Shown here: positions 6,360 to 7,469 of the stretch, in pieces
How positions within the stretch are numbered: the stretch's first letter is position 1
Layout: each line of letters opens with the position of its first letter
IMG/VR virus record: IMGVR_UViG_3300028490_000001
Coordinates: 1 to 14,676 of that record
Reading direction: 5' to 3' (one strand)
DNA length: 14,676 bases
From: a virus
Taxonomy: Duplodnaviria > Heunggongvirae > Uroviricota > Caudoviricetes > Schitoviridae
Translations under genes and position numbers: made by a program
Notes under the pieces: generated by a model
Told to the model about the DNA's origin: nothing
The model's input: the letters and a program-made list of their open reading frames with translations, nothing else
Database searches by the model: none

Positions 6360-6436
6360 CGCATGTTAGCTCAGCCTGGTAGAGCACTGGTTTGAAGAAC
6401 CAGGTGTCCCTAGTTCAAATCTAGGACGTGCGACCA
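6360..6436 (+). tRNA. tRNA-Phe(GAA) by anticodon, with Pro-like body
   Basis: Acceptor CGCATGT/ACGTGCG; D-arm GCTC-AGCCTGGTA-GAGC; anticodon arm CTGGT-TT GAA GA-ACCAG; TTCAAAT; A73; CCA. Confidence 0.88.
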
Positions 6437-6446
6437 AGTAAAATGT

Positions 6447-6522
6447 TGTGGTATAGCTCAGTTGGTAGAGTAGCTCCCTGTTAAGGAGAAAGTCCCTGGT
6501 TCGAGCCCAGGTATCACAGCCA
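6447..6522 (+). tRNA. tRNA-Asn(GTT)
   Basis: U1-A72, G73; anticodon loop CT GTT AA; T-loop TTCGAGC; CCA. Confidence 0.93.
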
Positions 6523-6530
6523 AAAGAAAT

Positions 6531-6566
6531 GTTCACGTAGCTCAGTTGTTAGAGCATCGGATTCCT
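6531..6566 (+). tRNA. 5' half of an interrupted tRNA (Trp-CCA or Arg-CCT)
   Basis: GTTCACG TA GCTC-AGTTGTTA-GAGC A TCGGA TT CC(T); the anticodon stem TCGGA finds its partner TCCGA only at 6998-7002. Confidence 0.85.
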
Positions 6567-6592
6567 GACTTTAAGTCTATCGAGTGTATAAT
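6565..6592 (+). promoter_or_regulatory. Putative sigma70-type promoter for the HNH gene
   Basis: CTGACT (6565-6570), 16-nt spacer, perfect TATAAT (6587-6592), about 20 nt before ATG 6612. Confidence 0.45.
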
Positions 6593-6995
6593 ATATATAA
6601 AGGATTTTAGCATGGAAAGACAAATTAAAGACAGTGAGTTATATATAGAGAATTCAAAATCAGTAAGGTCACATGTTCGTAAAAGAATATTGAAAGATAA
6701 TCTTATACCATACAAGTGTAGCATTTGCAACTCACCTCCATCATGGAGAGGGGAACCAATGTCTTTAGTGTTGGACCATGAAAATGGTGTGAACAATGAC
6801 CACAGACTTAATAATCTAAGGTTCTTGTGTCCAAACTGTAACCATCAGCAACCAACTTATGCTGGAAAGAACAAAAAGCGTAGAGAAGATAAGTTATGTA
6901 TGGACTGTGAAAAAGTTATATACAAAACATCTACCAGATGCAATCGTTGTTCACAAAAGCGTAAATATATTGATGGAACATTCTCTAAATAAACA
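6567..6995 (+). mobile_element. 429-nt HNH cassette inserted in a tRNA anticodon loop
   Basis: Removing 429 nt restores a 7-nt anticodon loop and a full cloverleaf; the cassette is promoter-like leader + SD + HNH ORF + 3 nt. Confidence 0.8.
6612..6992 (+). CDS. HNH homing-type endonuclease with Zn-binding CxxC motifs (126 aa)
   Basis: CSIC...LDHENGVNNDHRLNNLRFLCPNCNH core plus C-terminal CMDC/CNRC; AAGGA SD before ATG 6612. The track start at 6546 lies inside the tRNA half. Confidence 0.9.
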   Translation: MERQIKDSELYIENSKSVRSHVRKRILKDNLIPYKCSICNSPPSWRGEPMSLVLDHENGVNNDHRLNNLRFLCPNCNHQQPTYAGKNKKRREDKLCMDCEKVIYKTSTRCNRCSQKRKYIDGTFSK

Positions 6996-7035
6996 AATCC
7001 GAAGGTCGAGGGTTAAACTCCTTCCGTGTTCGCCA
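6996..7035 (+). tRNA. 3' half of the interrupted tRNA
   Basis: AA TCCGA AGGTC GAGGG-TTAAACT-CCTTC CGTGTTC G CCA. Confidence 0.85.
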
Positions 7036-7043
7036 AAAAAGAA

Positions 7044-7131
7044 GGTTCAGTGTTAGAGCGGTTTATTATTCTTCCTTGCTAAGGAAGTGAGGTGAAAGCC
7101 TCCATTGGTTCGAATCCAATCTGAACCTCCA
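7044..7131 (+). tRNA. tRNA-Ser(GCT)
   Basis: GGTTCAG/CTGAACC; CTTCC-TT GCT AA-GGAAG; long variable arm GAGGT-GAAA-GCCTC; TTCGAAT; CCA. Confidence 0.93.
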
Positions 7132-7136
7132 CCTTT

Positions 7137-7211
7137 TCTCGATTAACTCAGCGGTAGAGTGCTTCCCCGATAAGGAAGATGTCACTGGTTCAAGTCCAGT
7201 ATCGAGTACCA
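7137..7211 (+). tRNA. tRNA-Ile(GAT)
   Basis: CTTCC-CC GAT AA-GGAAG (C33); T-arm ACTGG-TTCAAGT-CCAGT; A73; CCA; 1:72 mismatch. Confidence 0.88.
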
Positions 7212-7218
7212 AACATAT

Positions 7219-7293
7219 CGCGGGATAGAAGACTGGTAATTCGCTAGGCTCATAACCTAGAGTACGTTGGTTCGAATCCAACTCCCGCCACCA
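7219..7293 (+). tRNA. tRNA-Met(CAT), initiator-like
   Basis: CGCGGGA start with C1:C72 mismatch; loop CT CAT AA; only two of the three initiator G-C pairs (A29-U41); CCA. Confidence 0.9.
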
Positions 7294-7302
7294 CATTAAT
7301 TA

Positions 7303-7387
7303 TGAGCCATGTCCCTATTGAGGGAGTAAAGCAACAGGAGTGTACATTACTGTTGTATAGTAATTGTCAAAAGATTCATGGCTCACC
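7303..7387 (+). ncRNA. Four-way-junction tRNA-like element
   Basis: 9-bp closing stem TGAGCCATG/CATGGCTCA; arms TCCCT-ATTG-AGGGA and GCAACAG/CTGTTGT; T-like arm AATT-GTCAAAA-GATT; ends ACC(T). Confidence 0.5.
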
Positions 7388-7392
7388 TTAAC

Positions 7393-7469
7393 GGACAGGT
7401 AGCTCAGCTGGTTAGAGCACTCAGCTCATAACCGAGTGGTCGCAGGTTCAAGTCCTGTTCTGTCCACCA
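7393..7469 (+). tRNA. tRNA(CAT), probably Ile2 (lysidine), otherwise elongator Met
   Basis: GGACAGG/TCTGTCC; GCTC-AGCTGGTTA-GAGC; loop CT CAT AA; A73; CCA; overall resemblance to bacterial Ile2 tRNAs. Confidence 0.9.

Follow-up and report, generated by a model that had tools for sequence, protein, structure and literature searches.

Free-standing homing endonucleases are encoded in the tRNA clusters of phages T4 (SegB) and T5 (F-TflI, F-TflII, F-TflIV) (PMC2330249). Like the gene described here, each is a small endonuclease gene that has its own expression signals and lies within a phage tRNA array, and each is believed to spread by cleaving the tRNA region in phages that lack it. T5-like phages also contain relatives of our protein, annotated as homing endonucleases in the tRNA region, and the two are 34% identical. 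The T4 and T5 genes lie between whole tRNA genes. Conversely, the gene described here lies inside an anticodon and so breaks a tRNA gene. SegB differs further, in that it belongs to another nuclease family (GIY-YIG). In 2007, Friedrich and co-workers reportedly described how nrdA of Aeromonas phage Aeh1 is divided in two by an inserted mobE gene, an arrangement of 'genes in pieces'. As at our locus, mobE (MobE is mentioned in PMC2330249) is a free-standing HNH gene, without intron or intein, inside another phage gene. However, the pieces of the Aeh1 protein reassemble and function is kept, whereas a tRNA nicked in the anticodon needs ligation before it can decode.

The group I intron of cyanobacterial tRNA-Leu(UAA) sits at position 34/35 of the anticodon loop, and some group I introns carry homing endonuclease genes. 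The tRNA-Ile of Azoarcus also has a group I intron in its anticodon loop (PMC13168695). Our insert resembles these introns in that it, too, interrupts the anticodon loop of a tRNA gene of bacterial type, and it shares position 34/35 with the tRNA-Leu intron. It differs in having no ribozyme core, no 5' splice-site U, no conserved omega-G and only 48 non-coding nucleotides. In archaea, introns with a bulge-helix-bulge (BHB) are spliced by proteins, and some contain endonuclease ORFs, while Nanoarchaeum tRNAs are made from separately encoded halves. Our locus similarly has an intervening sequence between tRNA halves. Conversely, it has no BHB motif, the phage encodes no splicing endonuclease and the gene has a bacterial-type promoter and Shine-Dalgarno sequence. 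Finally, Lak megaphages contain 'enigmatic' tRNA introns of no recognised class, present in some genomes only (PMC6784885). These too are unclassed insertions in phage tRNA genes that are present or absent between genomes. By that paper's description, they are short, have no endonuclease gene and, in one instance, contain tRNA-like sequence (PMC6784885). The insert described here, by contrast, has a promoter and an HNH gene, and no tRNA-like fold according to ARAGORN. A 'tRNA-Stop with 2.5-kb intron' in Vibrio phage pVa5 (PMC5746245) was set aside as not comparable, being an ARAGORN intron-mode call only. Our search of the literature found no published description of such HNH insertions inside tRNA genes; the Lak 'enigmatic' introns were nearest.

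The DNA analysed, hereafter the window, is a stretch of 14,676 nucleotides. It represents the first 14.7 kb of a complete 78,676-bp IMG/VR phage record (IMGVR_UViG_3300028490_000001) with direct terminal repeats. N4-like phages are bacterial viruses, and the Sak4-like protein of this phage is ~33% identical to their gp44-type proteins. Hence, the phage is a distant N4-like virus without a close cultured relative. A megablast comparison of the tRNA array with cultured phages gave no match. The array is on one strand, at positions 6273–7469, and consists of genes for tRNAs Gln, Phe and Asn (6273–6522, forward strand), a 521-nt gap, and genes for tRNAs Ser, Ile, Met and Met (7044–7469, forward strand). 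Well away from the array, at G000:C1:60127–60202, ARAGORN also calls a tRNA-like gene whose 'anticodon' has 2 bases.

The gap in the array contains the two halves of a tRNA-Trp gene, both on the forward strand. The 34-nt 5' half (6531–6564) provides the acceptor 5' strand, the D arm, the 5' strand of the anticodon stem and the bases U32, U33 and C34. The 42-nt 3' half (6994–7035) provides C35, A36, A37 and A38, the 3' strand of the anticodon stem, the variable loop, the T arm, the acceptor 3' strand, G73 and CCA. Its T loop is TTAAACT, with A56. A first-pass annotation had proposed that the halves rejoin into a full cloverleaf around a 429-nt insert. This is borne out; when 6531–6564 is joined to 6994–7035, ARAGORN calls a tRNA. 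The insert consists of a 47-nt leader (6565–6611), a 381-nt ORF, including the stop codon (6612–6992), and one trailer base (6993, forward strand) between the stop codon and the 3' exon. The non-coding part thus amounts to 48 nt only. Of the layout given earlier, the 381-nt HNH ORF is correct and the leader of ~45 nt measures 47 nt, but the trailer is 1 nt rather than 3 nt. ARAGORN did not find the split gene, even in intron mode. Annotators should therefore be warned that tRNA finders miss split genes of this kind.

The ORF (6612–6992, forward strand) encodes an HNH (His-Me finger) endonuclease of 126 amino acids, a minimal member of its family. It matches phrog_10822 (E 1.5e-30) and phrog_14736 (E 5.6e-23). 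Seven residues do not vary across 38 homologues, namely C36, C39, H56, N68, C73, N75 and C76, and they comprise the zinc cysteines and the His/Asn motif. The Pfam HNH match is weak or absent for the window's protein and is recorded for several homologues. The structural model has a pLDDT of 90.4 and predicts strands at residues 53–56 and 69–72, followed by a helix at 74–78. The top Foldseek matches were mostly HNH nucleases (McrA, Gme HNH, PacI, Cap5 and I-HmuI), all of them weak (E>0.1), and a PDB sequence search with the protein gave no homologue. At the level of sequence, membership of the HNH family is confirmed.

The 47-nt leader does not consist of RNA structure; as the first-pass annotation had missed, it is made up of a predicted promoter and a Shine-Dalgarno sequence. 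The putative σ70-type promoter (6565–6592, forward strand) starts at the first base of the insert. It has the −35 element CTGACT, a 16-nt spacer and the −10 element TATAAT; with 10 of 12 matches it is the best in the region. In what follows, related loci are designated by L numbers. The pattern TTGACT/CTGACT-N16-17-TATAAT is kept in 5 of 5 cassettes (it is TTGACT-N17 in L002), and so is the Shine-Dalgarno sequence AAAGGA, located in the window at 6599–6604 on the forward strand, 7 nt before the ATG. At the other end, the insert stops 0–1 nt past the stop codon. The cassette is a promoter, a ribosome-binding site, an ORF and little else. Judging by its motifs, the promoter is probably active, and transcripts starting from it could reach the downstream genes for tRNAs Ser, Ile, Met and Met.

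We also considered exactly where the tRNA gene is cut. The junction had been described as ambiguous, giving either Trp or Arg. For the window this ambiguity is real; ARAGORN calls the joined halves as Trp(CCA) for cuts at 6564/6994 or 6565/6995, and as Arg(CCT) for a cut at 6566/6996. The matter is settled by three relatives. A complete split gene is found in four lineages, namely the window, L002 (the same as L005, L006, L012 and L019), L003 and L014 (the same as L015). These four alleles align end to end through the cassette, with borders ...GATTC^YTGACTT... and ...^CAAATC..., where the caret marks the junction. In each case the joined halves are called as Trp(CCA) by ARAGORN, with the loop TTCCAAA and G73. 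In the relatives, a common anticodon results from no junction other than TTC^CAAA. Hence, the insert separates C34 from C35 in a gene for tRNA-Trp(CCA).

Uninterrupted genes give the same tRNA identity. Those nearest to the split alleles are tRNA-Trp(CCA) genes; L193 is 82% identical to the joined halves of the window and L162 is 84% identical to those of L014. The 5' half in the window can be aligned with the 5' halves of L002, L003, L014 and L004, and with the uninterrupted L193 gene. The joined site occurs without interruption in 99 viral contigs, and ARAGORN called 69 of these, all as tRNA-Trp(CCA). In a tree, the split alleles cluster with four uninterrupted Trp genes (support 81/93). The window has U.U mismatches at acceptor positions 2:71 and 3:70. 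Because these are also present in uninterrupted members of the same tRNA-Trp subfamily, they are a trait of the subfamily and not decay.

Adjacent pyrimidine mismatches at 2:71 and 3:70 (U.U plus U.U or C.U) are found in the window (6531–6537/7025–7031), L004, L014, L193, L162, L102, L182 and L007:812–885, and pairs 4–7 vary with compensation. The tRNA-Asn of L002 is likewise mismatched at both positions.

The location of the insert raises the question of whether it is an intron with its core concealed in the ORF. Such an intron could be self-splicing (group I or II) or of the archaeal BHB type. In favour, the group I intron of cyanobacterial tRNA-Leu(UAA) occupies the same position, 34/35, and the last base of the insert is G in L002 and L003. 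However, Rfam gave no match in positions 6500–7060 at E≤10, and there are only 48 non-coding nucleotides. Searched against the whole genome, the group I model (RF00028) gave only a chance-level match at 75552–75578 (E 3.3, 6.4 bits), away from the locus, and it had no match in the relatives' loci at E≤1. Nor do the junctions follow the rule for group I splice sites, which calls for a 5' exon ending in U and an intron whose last base is G. The 5' exon ends in C34 in all alleles, and the last base of the insert is A in the window, G in L002, G in L003 and T in L014. A free-standing homologue of the HNH gene in L007 has a collinear ORF of equal length. Hence, no ribozyme is hidden in extra sequence.

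The archaeal version fares no better. The junction sequences could not be arranged into a BHB motif, and pairing between the two 60-nt ends of the insert was no better than in shuffles. RtcB (PF01139), an Rnl2-type ligase (PF09414) and a tRNA-splicing endonuclease (PF01974) are absent from the phage genome, and the expression signals are of the bacterial type. We regard a hidden intron of either sort as highly improbable and close to refuted. The previous statements that the insert is not self-splicing, and that it does not end in omega-G, accordingly stand; no group I core overlapping the ORF was found with the covariance model, and the final base, A here, is not conserved. A 'tRNA-shaped intron' was a separate idea, which we rejected. 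ARAGORN found no tRNA inside the insert and the insert ends are unpaired.

Among 5.8 billion sequences, the nearest homologues of the ORF fall into seven protein clusters, which make up one small clade, and the DNA surrounding all of them was retrieved. The cassette is at the identical site in at least five lineages: the window, L002, L003, L014 and L004. Its protein is 64–68% identical between phages whose backbone proteins are only ~27–33% identical. The wider HNH family resides in phage tRNA arrays, with members in 80 metagenome loci as well as in cultured phages that infect many hosts. In the commonest layout, the stop codon of the HNH gene abuts the 5' end of an intact tRNA gene. In six cases that tRNA is Trp (L010, L017, which is Rhizobium phage RHph_TM30, L038, L043, L053 and L092). 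This distribution suggests a whole endonuclease family that uses tRNA genes as landing sites.

Individual members of the wider family vary in detail. The HNH gene ends within a few bases of, or overlaps, the 5' end of an intact tRNA gene in L010, L017, L020, L024, L030, L038, L040 and L043. The same layout is seen in L045, L050, L053, L061, L067, L078 and L092. The tRNAs abutted in this way are Trp, Gln, Glu, Lys, Pro, Met, Ser and His. In L017 (NC_070966.1, ~137991–138377) the HNH ORF has 128 codons, is unannotated and overlaps the start of the annotated tRNA-Trp(cca) gene by 9 bases.

An empty allele is present in close relatives of one carrier. The phages nearest to L003 are represented by two contigs, L207 and L209, with 90% amino acid identity and a four-fold-site difference of 0.284. 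At the locus orthologous to that of L003, and between the same flanks, they have an uninterrupted 76-nt tRNA gene. Compared with the L003 halves, the acceptor, D and T stems of this tRNA are identical, and differences are confined to positions 18–59 and to positions 73 and 75. The differences include three compensated anticodon-stem pairs, an elbow of A18/G55 in place of G18/U55 and the anticodon UCA in place of CCA. A replaced central patch between identical outer stems is the expected footprint of homing with co-conversion of the flanks. Furthermore, an inner helix from the donor and an outer helix from the recipient would each arrive as complementary pairs, so that matched halves are possible without selection. 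L003 and L207/L209 thus show what distinguishes a homing gene, that is, presence or absence at one precise site together with co-converted flanks.

These findings bear on the two suggestions made in the first-pass annotation, which were a compact homing element that targets anticodon loops, and a protein-spliced or two-piece tRNA with its own nuclease. The homing element is the better supported, by the HNH protein, the common site and the empty allele. Its range was overstated, however; the target is one tRNA-Trp subfamily rather than anticodon loops in general.

The uninterrupted tRNA gene of L207 and L209 is on the reverse strand at 2787–2862. With its UCA anticodon and A73, the tRNA would decode UGA (and UGG). 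Under the standard code, the large ORF next to it stays open and, hence, this looks like a suppressor-type tRNA rather than a sign of a recoded genome. The base T34 in this allele may confer resistance to the endonuclease.

Other searches were unproductive. A search of viral contigs with the promoter pattern returned the known contig and two chance matches only, a search with the DUF669 neighbour returned nothing, and a 17-mer from the L002 flank gave chance matches only. In tree tests a single origin of the split alleles was not rejected (p-AU 0.18), and the HNH tree is an unresolved star. Consequently, these trees do not distinguish vertical descent from repeated homing.

The explanation that we favour, with modest confidence, is that the insert is a ribozyme-less HNH homing endonuclease gene. 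It would enter phage tRNA-Trp genes at the anticodon, and the genes so invaded are probably silenced. It would represent a free-standing gene of this type in the smallest workable form, with a promoter, a ribosome-binding site, a 126-codon ORF and a stop codon. During mixed infection, the enzyme would cut the uninterrupted tRNA-Trp genes of the subfamily, at a site resembling GGATTC^CAAATCC. Repair off the carrier genome would then copy in the cassette together with a stretch of flanking tRNA sequence. Insertion would ruin the enzyme's own target and so protect the carrier. Lacking both a ribozyme and any known splicing signal, the interrupted gene most likely gives no mature tRNA. The intact look of the halves would have two causes: every allele invaded had been a working gene, and the nested helices were inherited as matched pairs, the inner stems from the donor and the outer stems from the recipient.

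The good condition of the halves can also be read differently. The insert could be a true tRNA intron that has no ribozyme. The precursor would fold as a cloverleaf, host or phage proteins would cut both junctions and ligate the ends, a working tRNA-Trp would result and the HNH gene would provide only mobility. This is possible, although we think it unlikely. In its favour, the halves in four lineages are as well kept as working tRNAs, with changes that are compensated across the insert. Thus, the complete split alleles of the four lineages keep pairing in 80 of their 84 stem cells, far more than chance would give (62.8 ± 2.9 in shuffles). Compensatory double changes are found in 14 of 21 pairs, many of which span the insert. 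Among the columns that are at least 95% conserved in 57 uninterrupted tRNA-Trp genes, the split alleles deviate at 0–1, as do those genes themselves. The elbow covaries also; G19U and C56A in the window (6549 and 7015) create a Watson-Crick U19-A56 version of the G19-C56 pair. Minimum free energy folds of the ~505–515-nt precursors form the D arm and, across the insert, the anticodon stem in 4 of 4 cases, and the acceptor stem in 3 of 4. There is no other tRNA-Trp in the complete 78.7-kb genome. Although neutral divergence amounts to 0.28, L003 and its uninterrupted orthologue have the same outer stems.

Rates of divergence are relevant here. Identity among lineages is 63–75% for the split tRNA-Trp halves and 65–80% for the neighbouring intact tRNA-Asn, so the two diverge about equally. 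L002 and L003 are close relatives, with a large virion protein that is 87% identical and a four-fold-site difference of 0.305. Synonymous divergence between their cassettes is 0.40 (n=20), similar to that of the backbone (0.30–0.44). Five of the seven acceptor pairs differ between them, and all five are compensated. If the cassette was already in their common ancestor, then the acceptor changes arose in the split state, which would imply selection on pairing.

Several observations count against rejoining. Neither junction has a conserved RNA motif; the insert opens with the promoter and closes at the stop codon, and its last base varies. A BHB motif is lacking, the insert ends are unpaired and the phage is without RtcB, Rnl2 and a splicing endonuclease. 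In two lineages, L004 and L008, C35 is replaced by T, which forms part of the TAA stop codon of the ORF, and the Trp anticodon is destroyed. Moreover, homing into working alleles with co-conversion accounts for intact halves without selection.

Other features of the relatives likewise suggest that a working tRNA is dispensable. The L004 halves have an A31.C39 mismatch. The ORF of L003 meets no stop codon ahead of the 3' exon and extends 18 nt into it; L003 has also lost the encoded CCA. In L004 (483–1096), moreover, the 5' exon is separated from the cassette by an insertion precisely at their junction, an uninterrupted tRNA-Trp(CCA)-like gene of atypical form that is flanked by a 6-bp duplication (AGATTC). 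In L007 the same atypical gene precedes the HNH gene, which is kept, and there are no tRNA halves. In the atypical gene of L004, a single base separates the acceptor stem from the D stem, the anticodon stem measures 6 bp and the score is below the Rfam threshold for tRNA. At the elbow, A18 covaries with G55 (for G18-U55) in the L004 halves and in the uninterrupted tRNA of L207 and L209. We had taken A18/G55 in L004 as evidence of decay. This was dropped, as both bases occur together in the uninterrupted L207 gene; they are an elbow variant and not damage.

RNA data are available for the L002 allele, which is marine, rather than for the window's own phage, and 19 seawater metatranscriptome runs were listed. 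In contigs from 8 of the 19 runs, the L002 locus was present only in the unspliced form, with no joined junction. Absence of the joined form from these eight runs argues against rejoining. However, contigs drop rare variants and the libraries lose RNA of tRNA size and, hence, this is only weak evidence against splicing.

The tRNA gene upstream of the split gene is itself variable in L002 and L005. The two genomes are otherwise identical, and a patch of ~50 nt differs in this gene (L002:2815–2890 and L005:965–1040). The acceptor ends are the same, but L002 has an Asn(GTT) anticodon arm where L005 has Thr(TGT). One metatranscriptome contig contained a His(GTG)-like variant. Contigs of two RNA runs have ~237 extra bases at L002:2839, perhaps tandem copies.

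A further explanation for the intact halves is that they are kept as a handle on RNA. They might form a tRNA-like clamp on the ends of the HNH transcript that is freed from the array transcript by RNase P and 3' trimming and is resistant to nucleases. Alternatively, the T arm and CCA might stabilise the 3' end of the mRNA made from the internal promoter. The predicted folds do form a cloverleaf around the insert, and in L004 and L008 the anticodon is dispensable while the T arm is kept. However, transcripts from the internal promoter start downstream of the 5' half and so cannot form the clamp, and L007 keeps the HNH gene without the halves. We consider a role of this type quite improbable.

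Were the halves to be rejoined, this would amount to an undescribed tRNA splicing route in bacteria or their phages. Extended to a class, the proposal would be that some phage tRNA genes have protein-coding, ribozyme-less introns that are removed in bacteria by a protein-dependent cut-and-ligate route guided by the tRNA body. We offer this tentatively and think it rather unlikely; we know of no protein-dependent tRNA splicing class of such a kind in bacteria. If it were true, the HNH cassette in tRNA-Trp would be one of the smallest members of that class. Because the L002 relative is found in many public metatranscriptomes, the question of rejoining is directly testable. If, as we favour, the cassette is a plain selfish insertion, homing endonuclease genes would need neither an intron nor an intein when the target is a dispensable phage tRNA gene. 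The conserved anticodon arm would then be a good landing site across very distant phages.
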